Shown here: piece by piece, positions 1 through 38,869 of the stretch | Layout of the letters: each line of letters starts with the position of its first letter | Numbering within the stretch: the stretch's first letter is position 1 | Assembly (NCBI RefSeq): GCF_964204645.1 | Contig: NC_134030.1 | Span: forward strand, 14,508,110-14,572,109 | Reading direction: 5' to 3' | DNA: 64,000 bases | DNA from: Tubulanus polymorphus | Taxonomy: Eukaryota; Animalia; Nemertea | Notes under the pieces: generated by a model | What the model was told of the DNA's origin: nothing | The model's input: only the letters and a program-made list of their open reading frames with translations | Database searches by the model: none | Position numbers and translations under genes: made by a program

Positions 1-1
1 T

Positions 2-1012
2 AGTTTTACAACTTTAAAAAAGAGATACAATATAAAATCTAAACCTTTTTATAAATTAGATGCACTTGATATTGAAGAAGATTTTGATTTAAAATTATTA
101 TCTAAAAGTGAATTTAAAAAGTTAGAAGAAATGAAAGAACTTAAACAATTACAAGAAGATATAGATGAAAATAGAAATAAAATTTGTAATGAATTAAAGC
201 AACAATTAGATATTGATAATGAATTATTTGAGACAGAATTTAAAAAACTTGAAATAATTCCTGAAGTAAAATTAAATGATTATACTCCTAAAATATCTGG
301 AATTGACAATAATACAATTTTTGAAATTAGAGGTTTTTCAACTCAATGTAAATGTATAACAGATCTTTATTTCAGTTATATTTTAACAGATCAAGGCTTT
401 TATGAAACTACTACTAATTTAAGAGAATTATTGATAAAAACATTACAATTAGACGTATTAAATAATAATTATTTTGAATTGTCTTCGATCGAAAAAATCA
501 TCGAAAAGTTAAAAATAGGCGTTCATAGCCCTGATAGACACTTTATTTTATCAAAATTAGAAAAACCTATTTTCCAAGTAAAGAAGATAACACACGATCA
601 TTTTGAAATAATTGATAAAATGGATTTTGAATTGATGAAAAAATATACTGAATATTTAAAGATAAATTCTAATGATTTCATAAATGTATGTGATATACGT
701 AAAGAATCTGATTATTTAAGAAAAATGAAACTTAACAATATGAAAATTAAGCAATGCGAGCGTTTAGAACTATTAAAAGATAATTCTGAATATAATATTG
801 ATTTCATTAATCCTAGATATTTTAGAAATAAATTGCGCCATCTAATTTTAATTCATAATGATGAAAATATTTACATATCAAATGAATTTTTCGATAAAGA
901 AATGATCAAGAATAATATAACAGAATATCAGGTGATAAAATTGATTACGCACAAGCAAAAATATAATTCTCAGCGGCATAAAGAATTAGTAGTAAGTTTA
1001 ATTGTTATTTGA
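2..1012 (+). CDS. 3' part of the mirror copy of the 758-aa Rep-like ORF (5' part outside the window)
   Basis: Translation identical to the C-terminus of 3099-5375; frame open from the window edge. Confidence 0.9.
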   Translation, partial: SFTTLKKRYNIKSKPFYKLDALDIEEDFDLKLLSKSEFKKLEEMKELKQLQEDIDENRNKICNELKQQLDIDNELFETEFKKLEIIPEVKLNDYTPKISGIDNNTIFEIRGFSTQCKCITDLYFSYILTDQGFYETTTNLRELLIKTLQLDVLNNNYFELSSIEKIIEKLKIGVHSPDRHFILSKLEKPIFQVKKITHDHFEIIDKMDFELMKKYTEYLKINSNDFINVCDIRKESDYLRKMKLNNMKIKQCERLELLKDNSEYNIDFINPRYFRNKLRHLILIHNDENIYISNEFFDKEMIKNNITEYQVIKLITHKQKYNSQRHKELVVSLIVI

Positions 1013-1069
1013 ATTGAAACATATAAATATTTAACATTTTATAAACTGTTTAATTTTTCTCTTAAATAA

Positions 1070-1267
1070 ATGGATGGTTTCATCCCAACTGGGAAAAGTG
1101 ATTTGAAACATTATCTTGTAGCAGGAGGATTAATATTGGCTGCGCTTTATTTATACTATGAGAATATTAGTAAGGATTTGATGAATGAAAATATAAAATT
1201 GAGCAAGAAATTGAAAAAATTAAATGGAAATAAAAATAATCATAAAAAAGTTATTGAATCAGATTAG
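1070..1267 (+). CDS. 65-aa small protein with a single predicted transmembrane helix
   Basis: Hydrophobic stretch YLVAGGLILAALYLYY; start context T5-N8-TAAATG like the Polinton structural genes. Confidence 0.65.
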   Translation: MDGFIPTGKSDLKHYLVAGGLILAALYLYYENISKDLMNENIKLSKKLKKLNGNKNNHKKVIESD

Positions 1268-1287
1268 TGAATTAATTAAATAAATAA

Positions 1288-1590
1288 ATGAGTGAAAATA
1301 TATTAAACTTATTACATCTAATATATAAAAATCAACAGAATATTAAATCAATTATTATGCTTACAGGTTTATTTTCATTCTCAGTTTATACTATAAAACA
1401 GTTGTTAGAATTCTATGATTGCTGTAAAATTAGATACACTGAATTAATAGAAAATATGAATTATATTTCAGATAGATTGAATAATATTAAGTGTTGTGAA
1501 ATTTGTAATAAAAGATATAAAAATAAAAAGAGTTTGAGAAATCATAAATATATTCATGAATTAGATGAAAAATTATATGAATCAAAATAA
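1288..1590 (+). CDS. 100-aa protein with a hydrophobic segment and a C-terminal C2H2 zinc finger
   Basis: CEIC...LRNHKYIH; TAAATAAATG start. Confidence 0.7.
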   Translation: MSENILNLLHLIYKNQQNIKSIIMLTGLFSFSVYTIKQLLEFYDCCKIRYTELIENMNYISDRLNNIKCCEICNKRYKNKKSLRNHKYIHELDEKLYESK

Positions 1591-1670
1591 GAAATCGACT
1601 GTTAAATTAGCTGAAAATATAAAATATATTAGTTGAAATGTATGAAAAAAAGGGGGTTGAGGTATCAATA

Positions 1671-1745
1671 TATTAGATACCCTATTAGATACCCTAATAC
1701 CATGTATTAGATACCCTATTAGATACCCTAATACCATGTATTAAA
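1671..1745. repeat. TATTAGATACCC short tandem repeats (mirror copy ~2366-2440)
   Basis: Four copies of TATTAGATACCC next to an A8-G5 run; the same motif recurs at 45027-45090. Confidence 0.85.
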
Positions 1746-2520
1746 TACGTATTAATGGTATTGAATACATATTATGCTTTATTTCTGAAAATGAAGTAAC
1801 AGAAGTAATTTATGTTTTAATTCATTCGAGTATGATATTATAAATTCTTTACACTTGACTAGGATAATACAAGAGTGATATTAGTTAGTTGGCTTATTCA
1901 GTAAGAGAAACAATGAAATAATACTAGAGTGATACTAACAGTTAAAGTTATTGAATTTCTTGTTAAATATATTTGAATTCTAGTCAATTCTTGTTAACCA
2001 ATAGCGCGAATAGAAATTAAAAAGATTTAAATAAAAAAAACAATAAGTTACTTTATCTAGTAACTTATTGTTTTTTTTATTTAAATCTTTTTAATTTCTA
2101 TTCGCGCTATTGGTTAACAAGAATTGACTAGAATTCAAATATATTTAACAAGAAATTCAATAACTTTAACTGTTAGTATCACTCTAGTATTATTTCATTG
2201 TTTCTCTTACTGAATAAGCCAACTAACTAATATCACTCTTGTATTATCCTAGTCAAGTGTAAAGAATTTATAATATCATACTCGAATGAATTAAAACATA
2301 AATTACTTCTGTTACTTCATTTTCAGAAATAAAGCATAATATGTATTCAATACCATTAATACGTATTTAATACATGGTATTAGGGTATCTAATAGGGTAT
2401 CTAATACATGGTATTAGGGTATCTAATAGGGTATCTAATATATTGATACCTCAACCCCCTTTTTTTCATACATTTCAACTAATATATTTTATATTTTCAG
2501 CTAATTTAACAGTCGATTTC

Positions 2521-2823
2521 TTATTTTGATTCATATAATTTTTCATCTAATTCATGAATATATTTATGATTTCTCAAACTCTTTTTATTTTTATATCTTT
2601 TATTACAAATTTCACAACACTTAATATTATTCAATCTATCTGAAATATAATTCATATTTTCTATTAATTCAGTGTATCTAATTTTACAGCAATCATAGAA
2701 TTCTAACAACTGTTTTATAGTATAAACTGAGAATGAAAATAAACCTGTAAGCATAATAATTGATTTAATATTCTGTTGATTTTTATATATTAGATGTAAT
2801 AAGTTTAATATATTTTCACTCAT
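2521..2823 (-). CDS. Mirror copy of the 100-aa C2H2 zinc-finger protein
   Basis: Identical translation to 1288-1590. Confidence 0.7.
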   Translation of the reverse strand: MSENILNLLHLIYKNQQNIKSIIMLTGLFSFSVYTIKQLLEFYDCCKIRYTELIENMNYISDRLNNIKCCEICNKRYKNKKSLRNHKYIHELDEKLYESK

Positions 2824-2843: not shown

Positions 2844-3041
2844 CTAATCTGATTCAATAACTTTTTTATGATTATTTTTATTTCCATTTAATTTTTTCAA
2901 TTTCTTGCTCAATTTTATATTTTCATTCATCAAATCCTTACTAATATTCTCATAGTATAAATAAAGCGCAGCCAATATTAATCCTCCTGCTACAAGATAA
3001 TGTTTCAAATCACTTTTCCCAGTTGGGATGAAACCATCCAT
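2844..3041 (-). CDS. Mirror copy of the 65-aa membrane protein
   Basis: Identical translation to 1070-1267. Confidence 0.65.
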   Translation of the reverse strand: MDGFIPTGKSDLKHYLVAGGLILAALYLYYENISKDLMNENIKLSKKLKKLNGNKNNHKKVIESD

Positions 3042-3098: not shown

Positions 3099-5375
3099 TC
3101 AAATAACAATTAAACTTACTACTAATTCTTTATGCCGCTGAGAATTATATTTTTGCTTGTGCGTAATCAATTTTATCACCTGATATTCTGTTATATTATT
3201 CTTGATCATTTCTTTATCGAAAAATTCATTTGATATGTAAATATTTTCATCATTATGAATTAAAATTAGATGGCGCAATTTATTTCTAAAATATCTAGGA
3301 TTAATGAAATCAATATTATATTCAGAATTATCTTTTAATAGTTCTAAACGCTCGCATTGCTTAATTTTCATATTGTTAAGTTTCATTTTTCTTAAATAAT
3401 CAGATTCTTTACGTATATCACATACATTTATGAAATCATTAGAATTTATCTTTAAATATTCAGTATATTTTTTCATCAATTCAAAATCCATTTTATCAAT
3501 TATTTCAAAATGATCGTGTGTTATCTTCTTTACTTGGAAAATAGGTTTTTCTAATTTTGATAAAATAAAGTGTCTATCAGGGCTATGAACGCCTATTTTT
3601 AACTTTTCGATGATTTTTTCGATCGAAGACAATTCAAAATAATTATTATTTAATACGTCTAATTGTAATGTTTTTATCAATAATTCTCTTAAATTAGTAG
3701 TAGTTTCATAAAAGCCTTGATCTGTTAAAATATAACTGAAATAAAGATCTGTTATACATTTACATTGAGTTGAAAAACCTCTAATTTCAAAAATTGTATT
3801 ATTGTCAATTCCAGATATTTTAGGAGTATAATCATTTAATTTTACTTCAGGAATTATTTCAAGTTTTTTAAATTCTGTCTCAAATAATTCATTATCAATA
3901 TCTAATTGTTGCTTTAATTCATTACAAATTTTATTTCTATTTTCATCTATATCTTCTTGTAATTGTTTAAGTTCTTTCATTTCTTCTAACTTTTTAAATT
4001 CACTTTTAGATAATAATTTTAAATCAAAATCTTCTTCAATATCAAGTGCATCTAATTTATAAAAAGGTTTAGATTTTATATTGTATCTCTTTTTTAAAGT
4101 TGTAAAACTAATTCCTGTTTCACGTAATTTAAATCTAAATATAAATTTATTCAATACTGTAAACATTGAATTAGTTGAAGATATAACAGTTGCTCCTTCA
4201 GTTTTAATATATTTTTTTGCTTCAATAATGAATTCTGATTTATCATCATTTTGATTAATTGTTAGGTATAAACATGGGATATTCTTAATTGTAAACATTG
4301 ATAAAATAAGTAAAAAGGAGGACTCTTCAATATTTTTACTTATCCTAGATTTATATCCTATAAATTTCCTTGCTAATAAATCACCATAATAACAGAAATA
4401 AAAGCATTTTTCAATCAAATCATAAATACATACGGTCTGTTGAACCTCATCAAATAATGATTTAAGTTGTAAATATGTAGGTGAATAGTAAATATTTTCT
4501 TTTTTTAAGTATTGTTTTATTTTTCCCATCACTTTTAATCCTCTTTTAAATGAAATACTTGTTATTTCAATTCTAATCAATCCTGTTTCAATTGATTTTT
4601 CAAATGATTCTTTTAACCTCTCTTGATAGCAATTTATGTAACTCATTAAATTTGAACCGAAATTTATATTTACACCAGGAGATTTGAATTGACATGCTGT
4701 TTTATTATAGATCTTTATTTTATCATCCTTATGTAATGCTGAAACACAACTATTGGAAAATTCTTTTAGAATTTTATATTTTCTATTTTCGAACATTGAT
4801 TTTATTTCATCTGAATTAAATGATCCTTTAAAATCTTGTGTCACATCTACATCTAATATATTGTAATTTTTTTCATTTAATAATTTTTCAATATTATCCA
4901 TTTTCTGTATTAATTCATTTAAATTTTGATTGCATAATGAAATTTTAAATACAGCAATATAATCTGTTAATTTTAATTCTTGATTAATTCTACTTAATAT
5001 ATATGATTTTGAATTATCATCATGAATTGTTAAAACACGTGTAATTTTTATAGCTAAGTTATCCAATATAATATCTCCTTGATTAAAACATTCTTTAATT
5101 TCATAATGTGTTATCTTTCTCTGATTAATGTTTAGAAAAGTTGTTCTATTTTCTTTTATAATTTCTTTTTCTAACATGATTTTATATAGCATTATATTAT
5201 CGCAAAATATATCTGATGTTTCAATTAATTCATTATTTTCAGATTTATAATACTCATTTATATTTACTCCTGAAATATCTGCTAAATTATTGTTAACAGT
5301 TAAATAATATAATATTGAATTTATATATTTATTACTCATGTCTTTCGCGGGAACTTTAATTAATCTTGTGCACAT
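3099..5375 (-). CDS. 758-aa intact protein; putative Rep_trans-like (RepC/MOB_T-type) tyrosine nickase / replication initiator
   Basis: Uninterrupted 758 codons in very AT-rich DNA; motifs D175-V-D177-V-T-Q-D181-F, K-I-Y223-N-K and I-R268-I-E270-I in the order of RepC RLDLAFDF / RIYNK / WRVEIE. ORF is secure, function is inferred. Confidence 0.6.
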   Translation of the reverse strand: MCTRLIKVPAKDMSNKYINSILYYLTVNNNLADISGVNINEYYKSENNELIETSDIFCDNIMLYKIMLEKEIIKENRTTFLNINQRKITHYEIKECFNQGDIILDNLAIKITRVLTIHDDNSKSYILSRINQELKLTDYIAVFKISLCNQNLNELIQKMDNIEKLLNEKNYNILDVDVTQDFKGSFNSDEIKSMFENRKYKILKEFSNSCVSALHKDDKIKIYNKTACQFKSPGVNINFGSNLMSYINCYQERLKESFEKSIETGLIRIEITSISFKRGLKVMGKIKQYLKKENIYYSPTYLQLKSLFDEVQQTVCIYDLIEKCFYFCYYGDLLARKFIGYKSRISKNIEESSFLLILSMFTIKNIPCLYLTINQNDDKSEFIIEAKKYIKTEGATVISSTNSMFTVLNKFIFRFKLRETGISFTTLKKRYNIKSKPFYKLDALDIEEDFDLKLLSKSEFKKLEEMKELKQLQEDIDENRNKICNELKQQLDIDNELFETEFKKLEIIPEVKLNDYTPKISGIDNNTIFEIRGFSTQCKCITDLYFSYILTDQGFYETTTNLRELLIKTLQLDVLNNNYFELSSIEKIIEKLKIGVHSPDRHFILSKLEKPIFQVKKITHDHFEIIDKMDFELMKKYTEYLKINSNDFINVCDIRKESDYLRKMKLNNMKIKQCERLELLKDNSEYNIDFINPRYFRNKLRHLILIHNDENIYISNEFFDKEMIKNNITEYQVIKLITHKQKYNSQRHKELVVSLIVI

Positions 5376-6210
5376 TTATATATCAAATTTTTATTAAAAT
5401 AGGTTAAAATTCAAAAAGAGTTAGAGTTCGCTGAAACCTTACGCTTTAAAATATTTTTTTTTCCCTTATTGGTAATGCTGAAACACAACTATTGGAAAAT
5501 TCTTTTAGAATTTTATATTTTCTATTTTCGAACATTGATTTTATTTCATCTGAATTAAATGATCCTTTAAAATCTTGTGTCACATCTACATCTAATATAT
5601 TGTAATTTTTTTCATTTAATAATTTTTCAATATTATCCATTTTCTGTATTAATTCATTTAAATTTTGATTGCATAATGAAATTTTAAATACAGCAATATA
5701 ATCTGTTAATTTTAATTCTTGATTAATTCTACTTAATATATATGATTTTGAATTATCATCATGAATTGTTAAAACACGTGTAATTTTTATAGCTAAGTTA
5801 TCCAATATAATATCTCCTTGATTAAAACATTCTTTAATTTCATAATGTGTTATCTTTCTCTGATTAATGTTTAGAAAAGTTGTTCTATTTTCTTTTATAA
5901 TTTCTTTTTCTAACATGATTTTATATAGCATTATATTATCGCAAAATATATCTGATGTTTCAATTAATTCATTATTTTCAGATTTATAATACTTATTTAT
6001 ATTTACTCCTGAAATATCTGCTAAATTATTGTTAACAGTTAAATAATATAATATTGAATTTATATATTTATTACTCATGTCTTTCGCGGGAACTTTAATT
6101 AATCTTGTGCACATTTATATATCAAATTTTTATTAAAATAGGTTAAAATTCAAAAAGAGTTAGAGTTCGCTGAAACCTTACGCTTTAAAATATTTTTTTA
6201 CCCTTATTGG
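4733..6210. repeat. 739-bp tandem duplication of the promoter and 5' part of the Rep-like gene
   Basis: 4733-5471 repeats as 5472-6210; ORF starts 5375 and 6114 are 739 bp apart; near identical (one E/K change). Confidence 0.92.
5446..6114 (-). pseudogene. 3'-truncated duplicate of the Rep-like ORF (aa 1-214), ending before KIYNK
   Basis: Matches 3099-5375 up to ...CVSAL, then an unrelated 8-aa tail. Confidence 0.85.
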
Positions 6211-6388
6211 GATCATTATTCCATAATTCAACAAATTTCTTTCCTTTTGTTAACTGTTCTGAATATAACTGTAAATATTCTAGTTTCAATTTATTCTCTA
6301 AATGTGTTATAGTTTTATTGTGTCTTGCTTTTTGAGACTTATCTATATCGATATTACATGTTGGGCAGTAGTATTTATTTGCTTCCAT
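6185..6388 (-). CDS. Chimeric small ORF: pPolB N-terminal zinc finger plus HNH-gene C-terminal tail (Polinton right-end ORF)
   Basis: MEANKYYCPTC...KLKLEY matches the pPolB start; LQLYSEQLTK...WNNDPN matches the HNH tail; same chimera at 40482-40718. Confidence 0.6.
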   Translation of the reverse strand: MEANKYYCPTCNIDIDKSQKARHNKTITHLENKLKLEYLQLYSEQLTKGKKFVELWNNDPNKGKKIF

Positions 6389-6636
6389 TTCAATACTATA
6401 TTTTTTATTAAAATTGATTTTAGAAGTTCAAAGATTTAAATGTTATTCATATATATGTGAATAACATTTAAGAGTAATAGGGGTTTAGTTGTTTCAGGCT
6501 AAAGGTTGAACGGGCGGGTGAGTAAAAATGAAAAAACATAAAAATAATAACAATTTCTACTTGAATTAGGAGCAAAACTCATAAAAATGAAAAATAAATT
6601 CGAGCGTGTGAGAATTTATTTTTCATTTTCATGAGT
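6205..6636 (+). mobile_element. Polinton right-end/TIR fragment including the inner arm and apex of a terminal hairpin (6473-6636)
   Basis: Collinear with 40540-40830; AGTAATAGGGG at 6473. Confidence 0.85.
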
Positions 6637-7499
6637 CTTCTATTAGATTTGACTACTAACAACTTTGAAACGAAATGTTAAACTCTGATAATAATATAAC
6701 AGTCTCTTTCTGCGCGTAGTTTCTATGGATGTACTGTGCTTCCTATTTTAAACTGGAAGTTACTCAAAGATAGCACCGGTGGAAATAGCAATCATCAATC
6801 ATGGCGCGCATACTGGCGCGAATCTGAAAGTTTGTGACGTCATTTCATAAATAAATAAAGAAGGAAGGCTACGAGAATATCCAAATCACAGGTTACTGTG
6901 AATAACTGGGATTCGACCATTCACAAGTTAAAAATGTACTTCCTTGTTTGTGAAGTAAGTTTATTCATACTGTTATTAAAAGCAGTTCCTTTTAAACATT
7001 CTATAATAGTATAATTTTGTTCGTGGATATCAATACTTCGAAAAATCAACAGCGCTTTATTTATTTATTGTACCGGTTCGCGTTTTCTTAATTGAATTGA
7101 ATTGGTCCGGTCCAAAAGGCGGGTCATACTAGTTAGCGTCAGAAAATGTCAGCGTCGGTGATACCTTGTTATCGTCGATATTAAACGGTTTAAAGTCAGT
7201 TTATACATCACATACATTACAAATTGGAGGTTCCTTGTACATGTACATCACATCGTGACGCAGCGGCGATGGTAATGTCATAGAAGAACAAAGTCAGTTG
7301 AAAGTACCTACCCACTGCACCGATAAAGAATGATTGCTAGCCAGAGACCAGTGCCAGTCAGTAATGGGGAGTGATGGTACCGTTCGTGATTATGTTTTTA
7401 TAATGGTTATTGGACGTCAATTTCATATGTGAATTGTAGTCCCCATCTGATCGCTTGACTTGTCACTCCTCTACTAATAGTAACACTAATAGTAACACT

Positions 7500-9134: not shown

Positions 9135-9691
9135 ACATTGATACAATTAATGATATATCATTCATTGACCCTCGTATCGTGTTTTATTGTTGAAGTATAT
9201 ACATATATGACAAATGATTGTGGTGATCATTTATATTTGAAGGGTTTGCTGGGAAATTAAAGAGTTTCATTGATGGTATACAACCTTCTTTGGTGCCAGT
9301 AAAACCACCAATCAATCAATGTATAAACCAAATATCAAGACAATACATGGAAGCTTCTTCATAGTTCCCAAAATAACTTGATTCCGTACACAGATTGAAG
9401 GACGCAAAAGTGAACGCAATAGCCCGCTGGGACTAAAGTCCCAAGTAGGCTGAAAATAAGCCCGTCAATCACACTCAACATCATTTGGCAATGGGATGTA
9501 TGCATAATTAAATCTAGTTTCAAAAAACGAAGGAAGAAAGATACATTTTCTCCCAATTTGGTCTGGGGACACAGCTTTTAGCTGCCCTTCATCATTACCC
9601 ATGAGTATATAATTACCAATAGTGCCATAGTCAGCGTCTCGTTTTGAATACTTTTTAACATTTATGTGACTGCCTAAAAATAATGTAATTA

Positions 9692-9830
9692 GAGTGTGCG
9701 AGAATTATTTTTCATTTTTATGAGTTTCGCTACTAATTCAAATAGCAATTGTTATTATTTTCATATTTTTTCATTTTTTATGAGCTCGACATTTCGACCT
9801 TTGGTATGAAAGCCCATTACCCCTATTACT
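9692..9830 (+). mobile_element. Outer arm of a Polinton terminal hairpin (element end ...CCCTATTACT)
   Basis: GAGCTCGAC..CGACCTTTG..GAAAGCCCATTACCCCTATTACT as at 41157-41204; complementary to 6473-6600. Confidence 0.8.
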
Positions 9831-23350: not shown

Positions 23351-23921
23351 AGTAATAGGGGTAATGGGCTTTCAGATCAAAGGTCGAACGGTCGAGCTCA
23401 TTAAAAAACAAAACATTAAAAGTAATTTAAAACTATAATATATTTTCATAACCGCGTATATTTTATATTAAAACTAAATATTTATTCTAAGATATCAATA
23501 ATTATTAAGCATATTGTATTAAATCAGCTCCGCGACCAATTGATTTATTTACAATACACAAATTCATATAATCAAATATATTTTAATAATAATAATTATT
23601 CTATTATTCAACTGAAATACACGCGGTTATGAAAATATATTATAGTTTTAAATTACTTTTAATGTTTTGTTTTTTAATGAACTCGACCATTCAACCTTTA
23701 ACCCGAAAGCCCATTACCCCTATTACTCTTAAAATAATCATATACATGAATAACATTTAAATCATTGAACTTCTAAAATCAATTTTAATAAAAAATTTAG
23801 TATTAAAATGGAAGCAAATAAGTACTACTGTCCAACATGTAATATCAATATAGATAAATCCCAAAAAGCAAGACACAATAAAACTAAAACACATTTAGAG
23901 AATAAATTGAAACTAGAATAT
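23351..23921 (+). repeat. Left TIR (571 bp); 23351-23727 is a self-complementary hairpin
   Basis: Reverse complement of 40605-41204; includes the first ~38 pPolB codons. Confidence 0.95.
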
Positions 23922-26900
23922 GAAGATGATATATTAGAAACTAAATTAGATGAATTAAAGAATGAAAAAGAAACATATAAATGTGACACATGTAATCAAT
24001 CATTCAGTGATAAAAGATATTATAAAGAACATTTAAAATCTTAAAGTCATATTAGAAATAAGAATAATGATATTTTAGGTGAAGATTATTTTGATAAAGA
24101 TAATGATAAGAAACAGAAGACAATTAAAAGCATAAAAAATAAATTAAACAATAAAAGACCATACATGGAAGATGTAAGAAAATATATTAATTCATTAGAT
24201 AATAAAAAAGATATAGAGATAACCGAAGCATTTAAAAGTGATATTGGTCCAGCAGCTATCGAGTTTAAATTTCATAAAGGAAAAACATTAGAAGAAAATA
24301 AAAAACATTTAGAAAATATGAAAGAAATAATAAAAATAATAACTGATGTTGAATATCCTAAAATAAGTATATCTTCTTAAGTTAAATTCATAAAATCTGA
24401 AGATAAACCAATATATAATATAAATTCTCATTCACAACATATTATATCTAAAAAACATATAGATGATAAATTAGATAAATGTTATAATGAAGTAAAAACT
24501 AAAATAGAAGAGAAATATTTTGAAGGATCTGGTTTAATATTTGATGAAATAATATTTATGACTTGACATGTTTATAACACAAAATATAATAAGTTAACTA
24601 AATCAAAACCAATTGATGAAAATAATTTATCATATTATAAAGATGATAGTATAAATGGAACAAGTTATATTAAACTACCATTTAAAACTAATGCTGTAAT
24701 AAATGTACAAAATGAAGATGATAAATGTTTTCTATGGGCTATAATAAGTTGTTTACATCCTGCAACTTATAACATTTGTAGATTAACTCATTATAAACCA
24801 TTTGAAAATAAGATAGATAAGTATCCTGTTATAATTAAAAACATCCCAAAAATAGAAAGAGATAATAATTTAAGAATAAATGTATTTGATTTAATCAAAT
24901 TACCAAATACAAAAGGTAACAACATAAAACATTATACATTAGAACCTTTATACCTATCACAAGATTATGATTCAAACGATGTTATAGATATACTATATTA
25001 TGAGAATCATTATATGTGGATTAAACAAATCGATTTATTTTTTAAATCAGAAAATGATCACCATAAAATATATCTTTGTAGAAAATGTTTACATAGATTT
25101 AGTAATGAAAGTACATTATTAAATCATAAACAATTATGTGAAAATCATGATTATTGTAAATTAGTTTTACCAAATGAAAAGGATAAAATATTAGAATTCA
25201 AGAAATATGATTACAAAAATAAAGTACCATTTGTTATATATGGAGATTTTGAATCATTAAATAAAGAACTAACTGATCAAGATAGAAAAGAAAAATATTA
25301 TAAAAGAAAGAAATTAAATTCTAATGAAAATGATTTTTCAGATGAACCACCAAAAACAAATACAATTAAAAAGATTCATCAATCAGCTGCCACTTTCGGG
25401 TTATATATTAAATCTGATTATCCAGAACTAATTAAAAGTGAATATTATGATTACAGAAATGAAAATGTTATCAATCATTTTTGTGACTTATTAATTGAAT
25501 ATGAAATAAGATTTAGTAAATTATTGAATACAAATATAGAAATTATAATGACAGAAGAAGATAAAGAAGCATTTGCGTTTGCAGGTAAATGTTATTATTG
25601 TGAAAAGATATTTAATTATAAAGATAAAAAAGTAAGAGACCATGATCATTTGAATGGAAAGTTTAGAGGCGCTGCACATGAGAATTGTAACTTACAAGCT
25701 AAGAAAATCAATTTTGTACCAGTTATATTTCATAATCTATCAGGATATGATGCACATTTATTCATCAAACAGTTATGCTATAAAATAGAAGAAATCAATA
25801 ATGAAATAGAAATATTAAATTCAAATAGATCAAAAGATAAAATACCAACTTATAAATTTAGAATGTTAGCTAAAACATCTGAGAATTATATATCATTCCA
25901 ATTTGGTTGCCTAAGATTTATAGATTCATATAGATTTTTAAATAGTTCATTAGATAACTTATCAAAATCATTAGTTGATGATGAATTGAAAATATTAAAG
26001 CAACACTACCCAAATAATGATGATTTTAAATTAATGAGATATAAAGGCGCAATTCCATATTCTTTCTATAAATCACATAATGATTTCAATATAACTGAAT
26101 TATTGAATGAACAATTCTATGATGAATTAAAAAATGAATATGTTAAAGATGAAGTCTATAATAGAACCTTCAATATTTGGAATCATTTCAAAATAGAAAA
26201 TCACGGGCAATTAGTAGATATATAATTAAAATCATATGTATTATTATTAACCGATATATTCGAAAGGTTTAGAGATGTAAACCTAAAATATTTTAACATT
26301 GATCCTTGCCATTGTTATTCATCACCAGGATTAACATGGGATTGTGGATTAAAATTTACAGATATAAAAATGGATTTGTTAACAAATATAGATCAATTAC
26401 TATTATTTGAAAAATCTATGAGAGGAGGAGTTTCAGGCGTATTGGGAGATAGATATTTCAATGTAAATGATAACCCCGGATATAAGTTATTATATATAGA
26501 TGCAAATAATTTGTTTGGTTGGGCAATGATGGAACCACAACCTTATGGAGTATTTGAAATAAGTAAAGTTTTACAGAATGAAAATAATGATAAATTTGAT
26601 TGGAAGAAAAGAATCCTAGATATTGCAGATGATTCAGATACTGGTTACTTCTTTGTTGTAGATTTAGAATATCCTGAACATGTTAAATTTAAATCTAGAA
26701 ATCTAGCATACTGTCCCGAACATAAAACTGTAACTCATGAAGAATTATCAAATTATCAAAAAAGAATTAAACCCGAAAATCATATTCATACAGAAAAGTT
26801 AATGGAATCGAAAAAGATTTCTTCAAGTTAATGAATAATGCATTCTATGGTAAGACTTGTGAAAATATTAGAAATAGAAATGACATTGAGTTAGTTAGTA

Positions 26901-27652
26901 ATGGTAAAAGGATACGGCATTTACAATCATATCCTAAGTTCATTGGTAACAGAATATTTGATGAAAATTTAGCCGCAGTTAAGATGAGAAGAACATCAAT
27001 GAAATTTAATAAACCAATCTATGTTGGCGCTTCAGTTTTAGAATTATCAAAATTACTAATGTATGAATTCTATTATAATGTATTACAACCACTTTTTGGA
27101 GAAAAACATATAGAAATCTTATATTTTGATACCGATTCTTACATATTAAAGATAAAAACTGATAACATAACTGATGATTTAAAAACATTAAAACATCATT
27201 TTGATTTTAGTAATTATCCTAAAGATCATGAATTGTTTAGCAATGATAATAAAAAAGTTCCCGGTAAATTCAAAGATGAATTAGGTGGTGAAGAAATGAT
27301 TGAATTCATTGGTATTAGATCTAAAATGTATTCATATAAAACTAAAGAACATGAAGCTAAAAAGTTAAAAGGAATAACCAAAAGTGTAGTAGAAAAGAAT
27401 ATTCATTTCAAAGATTACATAAATTGTATATTCAATGAAGAAGTTAGAAAACATAAGATGAGATGTATAAGATCTGAAGATCATGAAATATTTATTGAAG
27501 AAATTGAAAAGATAAGTCTAAACCCGTTTGATGATAAAAGATATATTTTAGAGGATGGAATTCATACAGTTGCTTACAGTTGCTTTAATAAAAATATGTT
27601 ATTAAAATGGAGAGTAAACAAGCAAACAGTGAGAACAACAAATTATTTCTAG
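23808..27652 (+). pseudogene. pPolB: Protein-primed family B DNA polymerase, disrupted
   Basis: YGDFES, FHNLSGYDAH, YIDANNLFGWAM, MNNAFYGKT, YFDTDS; endonuclease-VII-like RDHDHLNGKFRGAAH; several stops and a deletion near 26805. Confidence 0.96.
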
Positions 27653-27960
27653 ATAGAATTAAAGATATCACAAATGTAAAATCTGTAGATTATAAATTCA
27701 AAAAGTTAACAGAATTAACAATCCATAAGAAATATCTAATTACAAATATTGATACAGTTACTAATAACTATGGAGATAAATTAGTTATACACTTAGAATA
27801 TGAAGGATTAAAAGAAAATACATATAAATTCAGAACATATTTACCGGATAGATTTCATAGATTATCAAGTGAAGATTTAGAAGAATTATGTTCTGGAGAT
27901 TTCTATTTCGTATACAAAGGTAAGAATGAAAAAGGGCACCATGAAATAGATTTCGAATGA
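27607..27960 (+). CDS. 117-aa conserved Polinton protein, possibly OB-fold ssDNA-binding
   Basis: Near identical to 50573-50926; KL.EL...Y.I...YG...YLP.RF pattern; fold is a guess. Confidence 0.6.
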   Translation: MESKQANSENNKLFLDRIKDITNVKSVDYKFKKLTELTIHKKYLITNIDTVTNNYGDKLVIHLEYEGLKENTYKFRTYLPDRFHRLSSEDLEELCSGDFYFVYKGKNEKGHHEIDFE

Positions 27961-27977
27961 GAAAATATGTAAAATAA

Positions 27978-28736
27978 ATGGTGGAATTAAAAGAATACAG
28001 AATATTTGTTGCTTCAAGAAAACTTACAAATTATAAATCTCATTATTTACTAGTACAATTAGATAGAGAATTTAAGAATTGTGTTGATTTAAAATTAGTT
28101 AATATAAGTTTATGTAATTCTTTTCATAATATATCGAATAAAAGTCTTGATCATTTAGCTTTTAAAATTTATGATATAAATTTGAATAAATGGTTTCATC
28201 TTTATCTAAAACCAGGATTATATAATTTAGAAACATTAGCGCAAGAAATTAATAAAAGAGCTCGTTTAAAAATGGGCTCAGCAGCTGCTCGATTTGAAAT
28301 CAAATTTATCAAAAATGATAGTTCGAATAAAATAAGAATAAAGTTAACTAATGAACAACATAGATTTCTAGTAAGAAAACCTTTAGCTAAACTGTTTGGA
28401 ATTCTCCCGGATAGACATTATTCAAATATTGATACTTATACAAATATAATACCTTTTACACACTTTTATATTTATTGCAATTTAATCGAGCCTACAAAAA
28501 CTTTCGAAGCAACTAAAGATACAATTTGTAATTCTAGTATATTAAATATTTTACCGCTGAAAAATGTTAAACAATTTGGAACGCAAATAAATTATAATTT
28601 AGCTGAATGTGATTTCAAACCATGCATTCCTAAATTCAATAATTTTAAATTAGAAATAAGAAATCATAATGGATATTTAATTGATTTGAATAACTTTCCT
28701 GTTATTTATGAATTAGTTATTAGATGTAGAGAGTAA
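27978..28736 (+). CDS. Minor capsid (penton) protein
   Basis: ~250 aa, C-terminal YIYCNLI..ILNILP..FKLEIRNHNG.LIDLNN.PV.YEL typical of Polinton mCP. Confidence 0.8.
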   Translation: MVELKEYRIFVASRKLTNYKSHYLLVQLDREFKNCVDLKLVNISLCNSFHNISNKSLDHLAFKIYDINLNKWFHLYLKPGLYNLETLAQEINKRARLKMGSAAARFEIKFIKNDSSNKIRIKLTNEQHRFLVRKPLAKLFGILPDRHYSNIDTYTNIIPFTHFYIYCNLIEPTKTFEATKDTICNSSILNILPLKNVKQFGTQINYNLAECDFKPCIPKFNNFKLEIRNHNGYLIDLNNFPVIYELVIRCRE

Positions 28737-28752
28737 TTTTTTCATTATATAA

Positions 28753-29109
28753 ATGAATATAACTGTTGGGCCGAGTATATGTTTTGGGTTTGATTTTAAA
28801 CGTGAGAAAGAAATGAAATTTAACATTAATGATGTAATTACACATATTAAAAATATTGCATTTTCTAATGAAACAACACTTGAGTAAGAAACATCAATAG
28901 ATAAAGAAACTTTAAATGTAGAAAAGATTACTAATTTAATTAGAGAATCTTTAAGATTTTATGAATTAGATGAAGATTTTATCATCGATGATATTAAAAA
29001 AATAATAATTGAAATATATTCAAATGAAACTAGTAATGAAATAAATGTTGAATTAATCGTAAATAAGATAACTAAATATTTTAAAGATAGTAATTATTTT
29101 GATAAATAA
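28753..29109 (+). pseudogene. Hypothetical Polinton gene with an internal stop
   Basis: T6-N7-TAAATG start; homologous remnant at 51715-51991. Confidence 0.55.
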
Positions 29110-29331
29110 ATGAGTGATAATAAGTGGATAATAACTGGATTATATAATGGAGCATTACTATCAGTTGGAACTGTTGGTTATTCAATGGTATTAAAAAAAG
29201 TATTTAAAATGGGAAGTGTTAATGTTGATAGATTTGATATAAATGATATTTTAAAATTAACATTAGCAGTTACTTTATCTAATTTAACAATTGATTATTT
29301 GGAAAAACAAAAATATATTCCTCCCATATAA
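29110..29331 (+). CDS. 73-aa hydrophobic protein
   Basis: Two hydrophobic segments; conserved in 51992-52213. Confidence 0.8.
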   Translation: MSDNKWIITGLYNGALLSVGTVGYSMVLKKVFKMGSVNVDRFDINDILKLTLAVTLSNLTIDYLEKQKYIPPI

Positions 29332-29356
29332 ATGCATAATTTTTTTTGCTAAATAA

Positions 29357-29779
29357 ATGGCTTCTGCAATTATAACTATTATAGGATCGGCAATTGTTAA
29401 CGCTTTGGCATTTACTGGTGGTGGATATTTATTCAAGCATATTGATAAAAATAGTTCATTAGGAGAACAAAGAAGACATAATTTAGCATTAGAGAAATAT
29501 AATAAAGCAGCAGAAGAATATAGAGAAAAGAGGCAAAACTATATGGATTATATTAACAAAGAATTATATGATCAGAAGATTTCACATAGAGATTTTCAAT
29601 CAGTTGATGATGCAATGAGTTTATATAACGCGGTAACAAATAAAGAAAAATTACATCTATACAAACCTAAATTATCAGATTATTATACCCCAAGTAAAGA
29701 ACAACAGAAATATGAAATAATTTGGATTTTAGGTGGAACAGTTATTGTTATATTTGTTGCTTATAAGTTTACTAATTAG
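29357..29779 (+). CDS. 140-aa protein with N- and C-terminal hydrophobic helices
   Basis: IITIIGSAIVNALAFTGG; IIWILGGTVIVIFVAY; homolog at 52238-52659. Confidence 0.8.
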   Translation: MASAIITIIGSAIVNALAFTGGGYLFKHIDKNSSLGEQRRHNLALEKYNKAAEEYREKRQNYMDYINKELYDQKISHRDFQSVDDAMSLYNAVTNKEKLHLYKPKLSDYYTPSKEQQKYEIIWILGGTVIVIFVAYKFTN

Positions 29780-29801
29780 TTATTTTTTTTATGCTAAATG
29801 A

Positions 29802-30236
29802 ATGGATGATAAAGTTGATAATATTGATATTATTCCTCATGATATAAATAAAACTAAATTAAAAACATATTTAGAAAAACAAATATTAGAATTTGAAAGT
29901 GACTTAAAGATAAAAAAGAAAAAATATTTAAAAAGTAAAATTATATATTATTTGATTATAAGTGGTTCGGTTACAATTAGTTCTGTAATAACATTTTTAG
30001 CAATATTCAGTCCATTAACACCTTTAGCTATATCAATTGGTGTATTAGGATTAAGTTCAAGTGTTTTAAGCGGTATAAGTTCAAAATTAAATATAAAAAG
30101 TAATAAAGAAAAAATTAAAACTAATATAAAAGAAATTAATAAATTAAAGAATACACTAGATTATATAATAAGTTTAAATGGCCATATAACACTTGAAGAA
30201 CAAGATAAATTATTAAAAGAATTAATAAATTATTAA
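29802..30236 (+). CDS. 144-aa two-TM coiled-coil protein
   Basis: Central double hydrophobic segment; homolog at 52681-53115. Confidence 0.8.
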   Translation: MDDKVDNIDIIPHDINKTKLKTYLEKQILEFESDLKIKKKKYLKSKIIYYLIISGSVTISSVITFLAIFSPLTPLAISIGVLGLSSSVLSGISSKLNIKSNKEKIKTNIKEINKLKNTLDYIISLNGHITLEEQDKLLKELINY

Positions 30237-30252
30237 TTTTTTAATTAAATAA

Positions 30253-31627
30253 ATGGTAGATAGTTTTCCAAAAGCTTTCCAATATAATAAATCAATTAAA
30301 TATAGATTTTAATAAAGATATTACATATAGAGAGGAAGTTTTAGATTCATTAACTAATTTAGAAATTTATGTTACTGAAACTAATAATTTTAATGCAAAG
30401 ATGGAAAATATATTTCATGTATATTTAATTAATTTAAAAAAATTGAAAGATGAAAAACAATGGTTATTAAAATCTAATATGAAGTATTGGCAGAACCAAT
30501 TAAATTTTGCTGTTTATTGTGCAACAACAGGATGTGGAATAAGTTGGAATGATCATTTGAATAATTCTAAATATAAATTAATTCAAAGTTTATTTAGATT
30601 TCATACATACTTTCAAATAAGAATAATATTAAATGAATTAGAGTGCGCTTTACCAGGATCTAGGTATTTTAAAGAATTAGATAATAATATTAATTTATCA
30701 AAGTTTTATAAAATTTGTAATGAATTTAATATAGATATAAATAATTCTGATTTTAGAACAAAAATTGGAACAATAAGATCACTTCCTTGCCCTAAAAAGA
30801 TTGCAGAATATTGTGCACTTCCCATACCATCTAATAGTTTGTATAATATCTGTAGTCATAAATTAGGTTATGGTAAAATAGAAACTAAGGATTTAGAACC
30901 ATTAAATTTTAATAAATTACCGACATTTTATGATAATTTAAAACAAGAAAACAATAATGGTTGGGTTTATTTCATTTTAGAAAATAATGAAGGTTTTACA
31001 AAATCAGGTATACAAAGAATAAATCAATCTATTAGAACTTATTTGATATGTATTTTAGGTGCACAAGTTGAAACTAGATCACCAATAATTGGAAATTTGA
31101 ATACATCATTCGATACACAAAAACAATTCAAAGTATTATTTGATGATTCCATACATAATGATAAAAATAGATCGATTCCAGAAAACATTATAAGATATCA
31201 AAATTATTTAGATAAATCACATGTAAGACTAAATTATTGTATAGGCCCTAATCTATTAATTATTTCTAATGATTTAGTATTATAGATGGGAAATATAATT
31301 GGTTATAATAATCTAATTAAAACTGCAACAATAAATTATTCATTTGGATTGAATGATATAAATAAAAAGATTATTAATGCTCCAAAATTAATGAAAGGTG
31401 AAAAAAATAAAAAACATATTCAATCAACAGAAACTAAAACTAAAAATATTAAATTAAATAATGATTCTAAAATAAAAGATTATAATACATCAGAAGATAT
31501 AAAAACTGATATTATTCAACATGATATAATTAAACTAAATGATGATAATAAATCCCATGAAACTACTAAATTAGCTTTAACTTGTATAGGAATTGTAATC
31601 GGAGGAATATTATATTTTAAATTTTAA
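30253..31627 (+). pseudogene. Polinton protein (WQNQLNFAVYCATTGCGIS motif) with a C-terminal TM anchor, disrupted
   Basis: ORF pieces 30401-31285 and 31286-31627 are continuous in the homolog at 53374-54324. Confidence 0.75.
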
Positions 31628-31642
31628 TTTTTTATTATGTAA

Positions 31643-32595
31643 ATGGCAGAAGGTGGAGAAGATCCATTGGATGACATGGGAAATAATAATGAAGGATATG
31701 TTGAAAATGATTATAATGATGCAGGTGCTAATCTTAATGAAACTAATATTGATAATGATGATGAATCAGCATATAATTCTAATTTAGCAGATAGTGGTTC
31801 TAAAGTCCCATCAACAGATGAATTTGATAGAAGAAATAGATCGAGAATACCTCCTGAAAATGTAATTCCAGGTTTATCAAAGAAAGATATAGAAAATAAT
31901 GAATTTATATATAAGTTTCAAGATGTATTTGAAAAATCTGGATATAATATAAATTACAGAGGTGCAATGAAGAATTAAAACAATTAGAATTAAATAGAGA
32001 TCTTCAATTAATCGAGGAAAATGATTATGAAAGCAGAAAGTTAGCTTTAGAAAAAGAAATAGATGATTTAAAATATAACAAAGAATTACAGGAAAAAGAA
32101 AGAGATACATTATTAAAATCATATGATCTTAATCATATTAAAAAATTAAAAGTTATTTTTAAAGATTTGTTGATAAAACCAGATTCTAAAATATCATTGA
32201 AAGATAGAATAAAATTATTATTTAAGTTTGAAGGAATAACAATTCTTTCAATTCTAACAGCTGTAACTATGTAATTTACAACAATTGGTTTAGCAATATC
32301 AAATGCTTTAAAATCTACTCCTACTCCCAATAAACCAGATAAACCCCCAGGTAATAATTCTATACAAGATAAAGTTAAAGATGGTTTAAAGAAATTAGCA
32401 AAATATTTATGGGAACTATCTAAAAAATCTGCTGCAGCATTACCAGGAATTATTGCATCAATTGTTGGTTTTATATTGAAATCTGCTGGGAATATTCTTA
32501 ACTTTGCTGCTGAACATATTATTTCATTTTTAATTACAGTTGTAAGTGCTATCATTTTTGGATTAGTAAACATGATATCAAAAAATATCAAGTAA
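31643..32595 (+). pseudogene. Acidic-N-terminus membrane protein, disrupted
   Basis: MAEGGED start; downstream frame has stops but keeps hydrophobic AAAALPGIIASIVGFIL-type segments. Confidence 0.6.
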
Positions 32596-32661
32596 ACATG
32601 ATATCAAAAAATATCAAGTAACCATGATAAAAAATAAATAATTAATTTTTTTGTTAAATAA

Positions 32662-33902
32662 ATGAGTGGGAGTTATATCAATCCTTCTAAGAATCATAGA
32701 ATATCTAATGCTATTAAAGCAGAAAGATCACATCGTATAATTACTCATAACCCTTCAAATATTAATCCCGATGAAACTTTATACGTTAGAATTCCTAGAT
32801 TAACACAAAATACTTTTTATGTTCCAAATAGTATTTATTTATCAGCCGATATAAAAGTAATCGGTAATAATAATAATTATGTTGTTGATAATGTTGGAAG
32901 ATATTTGATTAAAAAGTTAACAATAAAGATTGGTCCAGAAACAGTTTTCTCATTAGATGATTATAATTTATTTATGCATTATAAAGATTTATGGTTAACT
33001 AAAGAAATAATATGATATTTCAAGGCATCCAATCAGAAAACCAAAATAAATTAAGATCACAAGCTAATAGCGCAATATTAACTAATGCTGTAGATAAATT
33101 GATAAAAAGTATATATGGAAGCAAATATAAAATTCCATTAGATTTTGAATTGATAAATAATAATGCACCTTTATATAAATACGCAATTCAAGAAGACGTT
33201 ATATTCGAAATAACATTTGCTCCTGTAAATGAAATTGTATTATCTAGCGTTGTTAAAGATATGGGTTATAAATTATCGAATATATGTTTAGAATATGATA
33301 CAGTAACTGATGAAAATATTTCAAGTATAATTCAAACTCAATACAATCAAGGATTTTCATTATTATATGATTATATTGATAAATTTAAAACTGTAACTAT
33401 TAATGCAAATGATGAAATAATTAATGAGAATATTAACTTCCCAAGAAGATCTATTAAAGGTACATTAATATTTTTTACCATTGCAACATATACTAATGGC
33501 GCAATAAATGTTGATAATTATTATAATCCTGAAATAACAAAAGTAGAAATAACTATCGAAGGAATAGCAAATAAAATATTTTGTCAAGGAATGAGAATGA
33601 TAGATCAATGGCCAGAAATTAGAAAACATTTTATGAATGAAAAAGTAAAATCATCTGGAAATTGTAACATTAATCAAATTGATTATTATACCGGCAATAA
33701 ATATGCATTATGGTTAGATTTTAGAACAACAGAGGATAATTCATTACATGGTTCTGGAAAAAAATTACAAAACACTAAAGATGGAATACAATTATTCATG
33801 ACAAAGAATAAAGGAATCAAAAATTTTAAAATGCACATTTATGTTATATCTGACGCGCAATTAAATATTGTAAATTCACAATTAGATAGTGTTATGTTTT
33901 AA
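32662..33902 (+). pseudogene. Major capsid protein (double jelly-roll type), one frameshift near 33012
   Basis: ~410 aa combined; ITHNPSNINP.ETLYVRIP, NICLEYD, KYALWLDFRT..LHGSG, YVISDAQLNI. Confidence 0.85.
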
Positions 33903-33934
33903 AATTTTAACTTTAATAAAAATATATATAATAA

Positions 33935-35047
33935 ATGGAAGGTGGAATATATGAAATACAAACTCCAAGTGAAATGATATCAGATATATATTATATATTA
34001 CCTTATGATGAATACATTAAGTATTTTGGAGATTACTTTAATCAATTCAAATATAGAATAAGTAAAATAGAAAATAATATTGAAACTAAAATAGAAGATA
34101 AGAATGATATTGAATATAAAATAGAAGATAGTAATAATATTGAGACTAAAATAGAAGATGTAACAGCATCTACATCTTATAATATACCCTCTACATATGA
34201 TATTGAATCAAAAAAAGAATATTATAATCCAAAATATTGTGATGTATGTAAGAAATATATATCATATAAAAATTGGGCATCACATAAGAAATCAAAGAAA
34301 CATATAGAAAAAGAAAAGAACAATAATGATAATAATATATCAGTTAGTAATATAAAAGATAATGTTAACCCATTTGAAACTAATGATACCATAGATAATA
34401 TAACAGATCATGTAATAAATAATGTTAATCCAATTGAAACTAATGATAATGATATAACAGATAATGAAATAATTGATGATTCTAAACAACATTGTAACAT
34501 TTGTAATTTAGATATTTCTAAAAGTAATTTTTCTAAACATAAAAAATCTAAGGGGCACATAGAAAATGAAAAAGAATTAATATGTGATTATTGTAATAAA
34601 GAAATTGAACCTGTTGATAAAATTACTCATTATGAATCAAAATTACATCTAATTAATGTTTATAAAAAAGTGGGTATGTTACCATTGTTAGATGAACCAA
34701 AGAAATATATCAAATATTTTAATCCTGAAACTAAACAATATTATATATTCTTTAAGTTGTTATTTGATAAGTTATTAGCTTATGCAGAAGATAATCCTGA
34801 CCAAATATATAAATTAGCGTATAATGGATACCTAGATTTATTTTATTTAATAAATGATTTTGAATTTGATTTTGATGGTGATAATTCTAATGATTACTTT
34901 GAAAAATTAAGAATAAAAGCTGGATTAAGTGATGATGAATGTAGAATGAAGGATGAAATAGAATTAATAAATATGCCAAATACTTCTGATGAATTTGATA
35001 TAAACGAAGATGATTTTATAAATGTATTAGAAACAAAATTAGAATAA
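33935..35047 (+). CDS. 370-aa protein with three C2H2/U1-type zinc fingers
   Basis: CDVC..HKKSKKH, CNIC..HKKSKGH, CDYC..HYESKLH. Confidence 0.8.
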   Translation: MEGGIYEIQTPSEMISDIYYILPYDEYIKYFGDYFNQFKYRISKIENNIETKIEDKNDIEYKIEDSNNIETKIEDVTASTSYNIPSTYDIESKKEYYNPKYCDVCKKYISYKNWASHKKSKKHIEKEKNNNDNNISVSNIKDNVNPFETNDTIDNITDHVINNVNPIETNDNDITDNEIIDDSKQHCNICNLDISKSNFSKHKKSKGHIENEKELICDYCNKEIEPVDKITHYESKLHLINVYKKVGMLPLLDEPKKYIKYFNPETKQYYIFFKLLFDKLLAYAEDNPDQIYKLAYNGYLDLFYLINDFEFDFDGDNSNDYFEKLRIKAGLSDDECRMKDEIELINMPNTSDEFDINEDDFINVLETKLE

Positions 35048-35083
35048 TTATTATAAAACTATTTATATATCTATAAAACTATT

Positions 35084-35420
35084 TATATATCTATGCACTA
35101 GACGTATGAAAAGAAAGTAAGAATCCAAGAATCCTTGCCAAGAAATATAAAATATAAACATAAATTATAAACATAGATTATAAACATAAATTATAAACAT
35201 AAATTATAAATATAAATTATAAACATAAATTATAAATATAAATTATAAACATAAATTATAAACATAGTTTTAATATATGATTTATTCATTATTATATATT
35301 TCATTTGATAATTCATATTTCTATGGACTAGACGTACGTAAGAATCCAAGATTCTTGCCAAGAAAGTAAAAAGGTAAGAATCTTACTTTCTTACTCGTAC
35401 GTCTAGTACATAGATATATA
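35084..35420. repeat. Inverted-repeat cassette with 13-bp ATAAATTATAAAY tandem repeats between convergent gene blocks
   Basis: TATATCTATG.ACTAGACGTA / TACGTCTAGT.CATAGATATA; about 8 tandem units at 35150-35265. Confidence 0.75.
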
Positions 35421-35452
35421 AATTAGTTTCTATAATATTACAAATTAGGATT

Positions 35453-35944
35453 TTATTTTATGAATTTATATTCATAGGGAAATTGTAGTCTCAGTAATAA
35501 TTATGAACCTTTATTTTTCTTTAATTTATTCATATATTCATCATGTAATTCAGTAGGTATAATTTGATTTTCTTCCAATGATTGTTGCATAGATTTTTTA
35601 TCTTTGTTATAAAATAAAACTAGAAATCTTATATTCTCCCTAAAGTCTTTAACAATTGAATTATATTTTTGATTTAAAACCCATGTTGTTATCCCAAAAT
35701 GTCTCCCAGAGAAAGCTAGATAACATAACTCACTTTCTCTAACTTTTGAATCATGTAAATTAGCGCAATCATCTATAATGAATAATGTATTTGATCCTTT
35801 ATAAGTATCGATTCCTATTTTAATACAATTATCTAAATTTTCTTTTACTGTTTTAGGATCTAATATAATAAACTTTTTCATCTTAACTATATCTCTATTA
35901 TATGTTTTTTTCATTTCATAAGTAGGACAGAATAACATTAACAT
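35453..35944 (-). pseudogene. A32-like packaging ATPase, N-terminus (Walker A) deleted
   Basis: LFIIDD (Walker B), SGRH, VLNQ; homolog 44402-45009 keeps GVTNCGKT. Confidence 0.88.
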
Positions 35945-36792: not shown

Positions 36793-36798
36793 TCTATT

Positions 36799-38731: not shown

Positions 38732-38869
38732 TTATTATATGTATTTTTTACTAAATTGGTTAATATTTTAGAATCCTCTTCCATTTCTTCGACCAACCAA
38801 CGTCATCCTTTTTCATTCCTCGCTGCTTTTGATAAGTCAGTTTCGATTCCTTGATATCTAAATAATACC

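Follow-up and report, generated by a model that had tools for sequence, protein, structure and literature searches.

A candidate TBP-fold tyrosine nickase gene at a Polinton end in the nemertean Tubulanus polymorphus

Introduction

An intact gene standing at the edge of a decaying transposon raises two questions, namely what its product does and which element it serves. In a 64,000-nucleotide stretch of the Tubulanus polymorphus genome (hereafter the window), one open reading frame (ORF) of 758 codons lies at a Polinton end, and a preliminary description read it as a Rep_trans-like tyrosine nickase belonging to a eukaryotic mobile element. That description also held that the known eukaryotic rolling-circle transposons use HUH enzymes, which agrees with the accessible part of PMC10288648, where the eukaryotic Rep-type transposons named are Helitrons and Replitrons, both HUH. 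Rep_trans enzymes apparently occur in bacteria only, with the archaeal Rep-Arvir as an addition, according to the available portion of PMC13107129, and TBP-fold rolling-circle nickases are placed in bacterial and archaeal replicons in the available text of PMC13595969. Our own literature search, which covered titles and abstract openings and had most subscription journals and Repbase outside its scope, found no eukaryotic Rep_trans-like family.

Here we describe the gene, its predicted product, its relatives and its genomic setting. The intact gene at the Polinton end likely marks a type of copying enzyme that, going by structure models and within the partly accessible literature just outlined, was not found described in eukaryotes. 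A family of this kind, with hundreds of clusters in eukaryote-associated DNA, would bring the TBP-fold nickase class to the third domain of life, would indicate an uncatalogued group of eukaryotic mobile elements, and would show gene traffic between rolling-circle replicons and Polintons.

Conserved residues of the gene family

The gene is encoded on the minus strand, with a predicted catalytic core followed by a C-terminal region:

3099..5375, minus strand: intact Rep_trans-like (TBP-fold) nickase candidate, a 758-aa ORF (ORF list, family search, model and alignment)
4482..5246, minus strand: predicted TBP-like catalytic core, aa 44-298, with D59, K144, D177, T179, D181, K219 (Arg in the family), K221, Y223, K225, R268 and E270 (model and alignment)
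3480..3833, minus strand: first OB-fold-like repeat, about aa 515-632, preceded by a long predicted helix (aa 457-503) (model, HHalign, OB-type structural matches)
3102..3374, minus strand: second OB-fold-like repeat, about aa 668-758 (model; 2cqa at Z 5.8 over model residues 681-758; HHalign)

The ORF list bears out a frame that runs without interruption from 3099 to 5375. D175, D177, T179, D181, Y223, N224, K225, R268 and E270 all stand where the preliminary description had put them, and the interval from D177 to Y223 is the 46 residues that it gave. Of 7,993 candidates from a word-index search, 5 proved to be homologs; a second such search, with the whole alignment, yielded 7 proteins only. 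A core profile run against 1.84 billion representatives reached 571 clusters (50% identity) at E <=1e-3, 348 at 1e-10 and 69 at 1e-30, the best 150 of the 571 clusters being listed. The alignment used below, A3, comprises the window protein and 122 of 153 collected homologs; the 31 omitted are mostly fragments or proteins missing parts of the core.

Most homologs in A3 are only 14-28% identical to the window protein, and the motifs are conserved across them above chance level. Five residues central to the proposed active site are near-invariant (D177 and D181 each in 121/121 rows, Y223 in 122/123, R268 and E270 each in 120/123), and the same alignment gives K144 113/118, T179 117/121, R219 119/123, K221 121/123, N224 117/123, K225 121/123 and G265 123/123. 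Since the search profile included these motifs, their conservation is partly a product of selection by the search; D59, an acidic residue overlooked earlier, lay outside the profile and is conserved in 105/108 rows. The proposed motif I stands in part: D177 and D181 are kept, whereas D175 is variable (86/120), its position holding D 86, S 13, E 9, C 7, Q 3 and gap 3 (n=123), and an equivalent of RepDE R140 is absent. Position 219 is Lys in the window copy as against Arg in most of the family. At the interval of Rep_trans motif II (T/SxY/ExG) the family has V-G-x-x-C-L, and A3 contains no conserved His pair.

The family is under purifying selection, with dN/dS of 0.13-0.40 in five pairs of homolog loci, some of them non-independent. 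Among ORF copies within the species, third codon positions account for 15 of 24 listed variant sites (p 0.003; 40 of 676 sites listed).

Predicted fold and relation to known nickases

A structure model based on A3 reached pLDDT 88.7 and pTM 0.70 and was the one used, the single-sequence model having reached pLDDT 33. The predicted fold is TBP-like and matches both RepDE and inovirus G2P, in keeping with the kinship first proposed. The best full-core matches are to TBP itself (Z 8.0-8.2), with model residues 44-298 aligning at Z 8.2 and rmsd 5.0 over 156 residues. Residues 51-292 align with residues 39-236 of RepDE (4cwe) at Z 5.7 and rmsd 5.0 over 153 residues, a level (Z <8) that can reflect a common arrangement, and RepDE falls outside the top 50 of a wide structure search. 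RepSTK1 and RepDE match TBP itself at only Z 5.4, as reported in the accessible part of PMC4797284. Foldseek places RepDE fourth and fifth in the PDB (4cwc at E 5.4e-3, the other at 6.0e-3; probability 0.91-0.92), with nothing at 1e-3, and inovirus G2P third among viral models (E 5.5e-4, probability 0.97).

The same searches bear on whether the protein is a nickase at all. A transcription factor or other DNA-binding protein of TBP type, or else a metal-dependent phosphohydrolase resembling the triphosphate tunnel enzymes, would account for TBP being the best full-core match, for the presence, in the viral structure search, of large subunits of early transcription factors from large DNA viruses, and for the match of triphosphate tunnel enzymes to residues 175-306 (Z 5.8-5.9). 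We nevertheless consider such a function unlikely, as the tunnel-enzyme match extends over 86-88 residues, against 153 for RepDE, and the invariant D/D/E set, together with Tyr, Arg and Lys at every second strand position, looks catalytic. The DNA face of TBP is not known to carry such acidic residues.

The predicted strands 57-67, 172-183, 218-224 and 266-273 bear the conserved residues at i, i+2 spacing; Y223 falls in strand 218-224 of the TBP-like sheet, and the YxK of motif III is present. In RepDE the metal ligands are D46, D142 and E214, the nucleophile is Y191, and R189 and K193 are important, the residue list further including D146 and R212 (Carr et al., PMC4797284, accessible part). 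D59, D177, E270, Y223, K221 and K225 map in order, on strands, to RepDE residues, and the aligned ranges agree with D46, D142 and E214. Taken at the level of sequence, D59, D177, E270 and Y223 together give a putative counterpart of the Asp/Asp/Glu plus Tyr set of RepDE; the triad and Y223 would cluster in space, as judged from strand order only.

Searches by sequence gave a different picture from those by structure. Neither the window protein (searched to E 1) nor 7 members of the family (to E 0.05) matched Pfam, PF02486 included, and the same proteins gave no PHROGs match; a sequence profile search of the PDB yielded nothing beyond low-complexity matches, and a full-length ESM Atlas search with P0008 gave no usable match. 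Comparison with Rep_trans profiles in HHalign fell short of significance (E about 0.05-0.11), and against G2P it brought motifs I, III and IV into register over 105 columns with a score that 11 of 100 block shuffles equalled; the profile-profile method also missed, in one case where the profiles were thin, a known relationship, that of Firmicute Rep to G2P (E 0.15). PF02486 clusters appear in the ESM Atlas at 0.91 with 140-143 shared features, below the guide value of 170, which makes them a lead only. The reading as a Rep_trans nickase keeps its fold and its conserved proposed catalytic residues; for membership of Rep_trans itself there was no support from a PF02486 match, a significant profile match or a motif I Arg. 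Because kinship was not found at the sequence level and that Arg is absent, we file the family outside Rep_trans, as what is likely a separate branch that would work in the same manner.

Like Rep_trans (PF02486: pT181 RepC, RepD/RepDE 4CWC/4CWE, RepSTK1) and MOB_T, the family has a predicted TBP-like sheet, a D...D...E triad, a strand Tyr in x-Y-N-K, an R-x-E and the order N'/I/III/IV, these motifs (N'-IV) being defined in the accessible part of PMC5714925. Unlike them, it gives no Pfam or significant profile match, has a motif I of D-x-D-x-T-x-D without Arg and no recognised motif II, and spaces Tyr and Glu by 47 residues as against 23. Its eukaryote-associated proteins are about 800-950 aa in length and include a long helix and a pair of OB-fold-like repeats. 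Among named replication proteins, inovirus gpII/G2P (Phage_CRI-type) ranks best in the structure search of viral models and has the D-x-T of motif I and the G-x-x-R-x-E of motif IV in register, but its profile match is no better than shuffles, and the window family has extra C-terminal domains and is without capsid or phage genes. The archaeal Rep-Arvir (DUF7845/PF25227; PMC13107129), so far as the available text describes it, is likewise a TBP-fold branch that structure reveals and sequence does not, its Tyr being essential and its acidic residues forming a triad; it has KHYYM and a winged helix, whereas the window family has KxYNK and OB-fold-like repeats and gives no DUF7845 match.

The two C-terminal repeats match each other in HHalign (probability 87.7, E 3.4e-6). 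Given their structural matches of the OB type, a role in binding single-strand DNA is likely for these predicted domains.

Organization of the cassette

Read inward from the right, the locus passes from a Polinton right end through a 739-bp duplicate, the gene, a 65-aa ORF, a zinc-finger-like ORF and repeats to a palindrome apex and its mirror arm:

9675..9830, no strand: probable outer arm of the Polinton terminus at 6204..6640, with ~3 kb of other DNA between (102/126 reverse complement of 6473-6597)
6204..6640, no strand: Polinton right-end sequence including the inner arm of the terminal hairpin (305/347 identical to 40534-40874)
5472..6210, minus strand: 739-bp tandem duplicate covering the 5' end of the gene and the region upstream of it (of 7 mismatches, 6 fall in the final 11 bases)
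5373..5396, minus strand: Polinton-type gene start motif, TA(A/G)TAAAAA-N4-14-TA(A)AATG, with a second occurrence at 6112-6135 in the duplicate (motif search)
2844..3041, minus strand: 65-aa ORF with a short hydrophobic stretch and no Pfam match (ORF list)
2521..2823, minus strand: 100-aa ORF whose C2H2 zinc-finger match is weak, E 0.0012, and under the cut-off (Pfam)
2376..2480, no strand: non-coding repeat region common to the intergenic region of the second Polinton, 45019-45190 (34/34 and 55/66 identity)
2053..2058, no strand: palindrome apex, 6 nt (sequence self-comparison)
1..2052, plus strand: perfect mirror image of 2059-4110, its 2052 bp free of mismatches, leaving the window (sequence self-comparison)

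The ORFs of the cassette (2059-6204) are the Rep-like gene with its 5' duplicate, the 65-aa ORF and the zinc-finger ORF; pPolB, integrase, ATPase and capsid genes are absent from it. The duplicate begins no more than about 6 bases from the Polinton junction and encodes a 222-aa ORF (5446-6114) that stops before the putative catalytic Tyr, Y223. In reads of other copies, the sequence runs on after 6629 into the outer arm of the terminus.

The inverted repeat mirrors ORF bases 3099-4110 at 1-1012 and forms a palindrome of 4.1 kb. A question apart from the nature of the enzyme is whether fold-back or assembly produced this palindrome, and perhaps the 739-bp duplicate too, as an artefact; both would then be mechanistically uninformative, whereas the gene and the family are real in either case. 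That the perfectly matching arms reach the window's first base, when Polinton copies differ by 3-15%, and that neither the apex nor the duplicate joint is among 15 of 98 joints listed, both speak for an artefact; strand-switch joints lying in the same region in other public-run copies (4212/4317 and 1843/2543, each in a single contig), and an inverted copy of the gene's 5' part at homolog locus L013, which is 86% identical and hence older, speak for a genuine structure. We lean towards the latter while giving the artefact appreciable weight.

Relation to the Polinton copies in the window

One Polinton lies to the right of the cassette:

23351..41204, no strand: decayed Polinton with a 6-bp flanking direct repeat, Rep-like gene absent (Pfam and self-comparison)

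The window's Polinton genes had been described as broken, and ORF fragments are what is found, with partial Pfam matches to DNA_pol_B_2 (26-268/468), rve (6-93/102), Pox_A32 (79-164/242) and Capsid_N (63-104/207). LINE fragments occur at about 18.3-22.2 kb of the window, and the LINE and Polinton sequence together indicate a eukaryotic host. The start motif occurs 10 times in the window, at 8 Polinton ORF starts, at the gene and at its duplicate. About 21 kb of host DNA contain none, shuffles average 0.03-0.28, and three of the starts had served to derive the pattern.

Such sharing raises the alternative of a tyrosine nickase that serves the Polinton itself, either cutting or resolving the hairpin termini of a Polinton subfamily or replacing its replication module, and has no element of its own. 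This would explain the common start motif, the inward reading of the gene from the Polinton right end and the downstream non-coding region common to Polinton copy 2; it would also suit Polinton termini that are imperfect palindromes of 377-406 bp, and PMC11296320 (accessible part) puts forward replicon turnover beside terminal repeats in Polinton-like viruses. We regard it as unlikely, as the Rep-like gene is present in neither Polinton copy of the window, both of which carry pPolB, as the window's Polinton genes are matched by 0/17 homolog loci (contigs 1.4-4.7 kb), and as depth in run X5 is about 50 times greater over terminus-like DNA than over the gene. The likeness to Polintons/Mavericks consists, at this locus, of a terminus, a gene-start motif and an intergenic repeat, whereas the cassette is without their pPolB, integrase, ATPase and capsid genes. 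As for the eukaryotic mobile element of the preliminary description, the mobile-looking contexts of eukaryotic type hold up. An independent element built on the gene stays a proposal at this locus, where both promoter motif and end are of Polinton type.

Read depth

Reads from a separate study of the species span the ORF from end to end, at a summed depth of 18-38 per bin (run X5, about 12% read), and the gene is therefore not peculiar to the assembly. In run X1, two near-identical contigs matching the ORF stand at depths of 589 and 946, against 37-57 for three other listed ORF contigs; read depth is not equal to copy number, and the gene would appear to be multi-copy. The two small ORFs are about 5-fold deeper than the Rep-like gene in run X5, where the Polinton terminus shows its 50-fold excess. 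Being deeper in reads, the small ORFs at 2500-3100 occur also without the Rep-like gene, in deletion derivatives or other Polintons.

Distribution of the family

Among 30 cluster representatives looked up, two are named eukaryotic genes, none is a named bacterial or phage gene, and the rest are unnamed or hypothetical. The two named genes, XP_065207965.1 and XP_065207970.1 of the mealybug Planococcus citri, are nearby loci on an 84-Mb contig; the remaining representatives lie on contigs <9 kb where a length is given. These few named cases suggest that most family members are eukaryotic, and the occurrence of the family in eukaryote-type, mobile-looking contexts is supported.

Pattern scans of IMG/VR found no relatives, and P0008, the only query used, matched nothing among plasmids (72,556 records) or phages (50,697). 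Scans with the motifs of one subgroup (A4), which other subgroups could escape, gave a locus in 1 of 185,579 prokaryote genomes and 16 loci out of 239 pattern matches in metagenomes. The lone prokaryote-genome locus is on a 1,384-bp contig, with the remainder of its gene on another contig of 1,529 bp, and is likely bin contamination.

A stop, frame change or inversion is found in 7 of the 17 homolog loci, and the broken metagenomic copies may be assembly errors. We count these loci as signs of a mobile element, together with the inverted copy at L013, the hairpin at L007, the two neighbouring P. citri loci and the two deep contigs of run X1. Locus L012 adjoins a DDE_Tnp_4 transposase, and a zinc-finger-like ORF lies beside homolog L002 and is fused to P0155. 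One contig end, at L007, forms a hairpin with a 30-bp stem; a terminal hairpin is clear in only 1/14 homolog contigs (28 ends folded), and telomere repeats show no enrichment in the homolog loci (0-3 hexamers each; short contigs). A GC-richer subgroup (L009, L010, L011, L012 and L014) has, immediately upstream of the Rep-like gene, a conserved ORF of 95-108 aa; the two examined match nothing in Pfam. Circular permutation, considered as the source of three protein lengths in the P0003 cluster, was rejected, the two shorter proteins matching the two ends of the 1090-aa protein.

Proposed mechanism

On balance we favour the reading that the ORF encodes a putative metal-dependent tyrosine nickase, acting through Tyr223 in the rolling-circle or rolling-hairpin copying of a small eukaryotic element with a host polymerase, and carried here on a Polinton arm. 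By analogy with RepDE, D59, D177 and E270 would bind Mg or Mn, and Y223 would attack the backbone and remain linked to the 5' end, assisted by R219/K221, K225 and R268 (Lys at 219 in the window copy). The free 3'-OH would then be extended by a host polymerase while the OB folds held the displaced strand, and a second nick with rejoining would release or insert the copy. The 5' tandem duplicate and the palindrome could be by-products of restart and snap-back replication, and the cassette either cargo or a parasite of the Polinton.

A broader proposal, to which we give somewhat less than an even chance, is that the family represents an undescribed class of eukaryotic element present in several lineages, in which a TBP-fold tyrosine nickase brings its own single-strand-binding domains. 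Such a class would be a counterpart of Rep_trans and Rep-Arvir, and would appear in this window as a Polinton satellite that uses the Polinton's promoter and ends and leaves palindromic snap-back copies. Its presumed lifestyle is that of Helitrons and Replitrons, eukaryotic elements moved by a tyrosine nickase. Those enzymes have the HUH fold (PMC10288648, accessible part). HUH enzymes are RRM-like with the Tyr on a helix, whereas the window family has no conserved His pair, carries its Tyr on a strand of a TBP-like sheet and has a different predicted fold.

Further features of the Polintons

The outermost 377-406 bp of the Polinton at each end (23351-23727 and 40799-41204) form imperfect palindromes, about 79% self-complementary, inside the 6-bp direct repeat. 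Long hairpin-forming termini are not known as a feature of Polintons, and our literature search found no paper on them. Palindromic short versions of the terminus, each 190 bp, lie at 11877-12066, 15396-15585 and 46769-46958, two of them in host-like DNA, and are possibly non-autonomous derivatives. A 3.5-kb tandem duplication (10603-14006 / 14121-17525) with 99.9% identity, which includes a 9-bp tandem array, is either recent or an assembly artefact.

The second Polinton (41241-54324) is rearranged, consisting of an inverted copy of 33429-38979, then a terminus, then a direct copy of 23755-31591, and where 33935-35047 would stand it has a different gene, 45385-46089. As the terminal repeat contains the start of the gene on the pPolB side, a short zinc-finger-like ORF begins at both ends (23808-24044, 40484-40718 and 47190 onward). 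The pPolB-side ORF at 24567-26225 matches an Endonuclease VII domain (E 2.4e-5).
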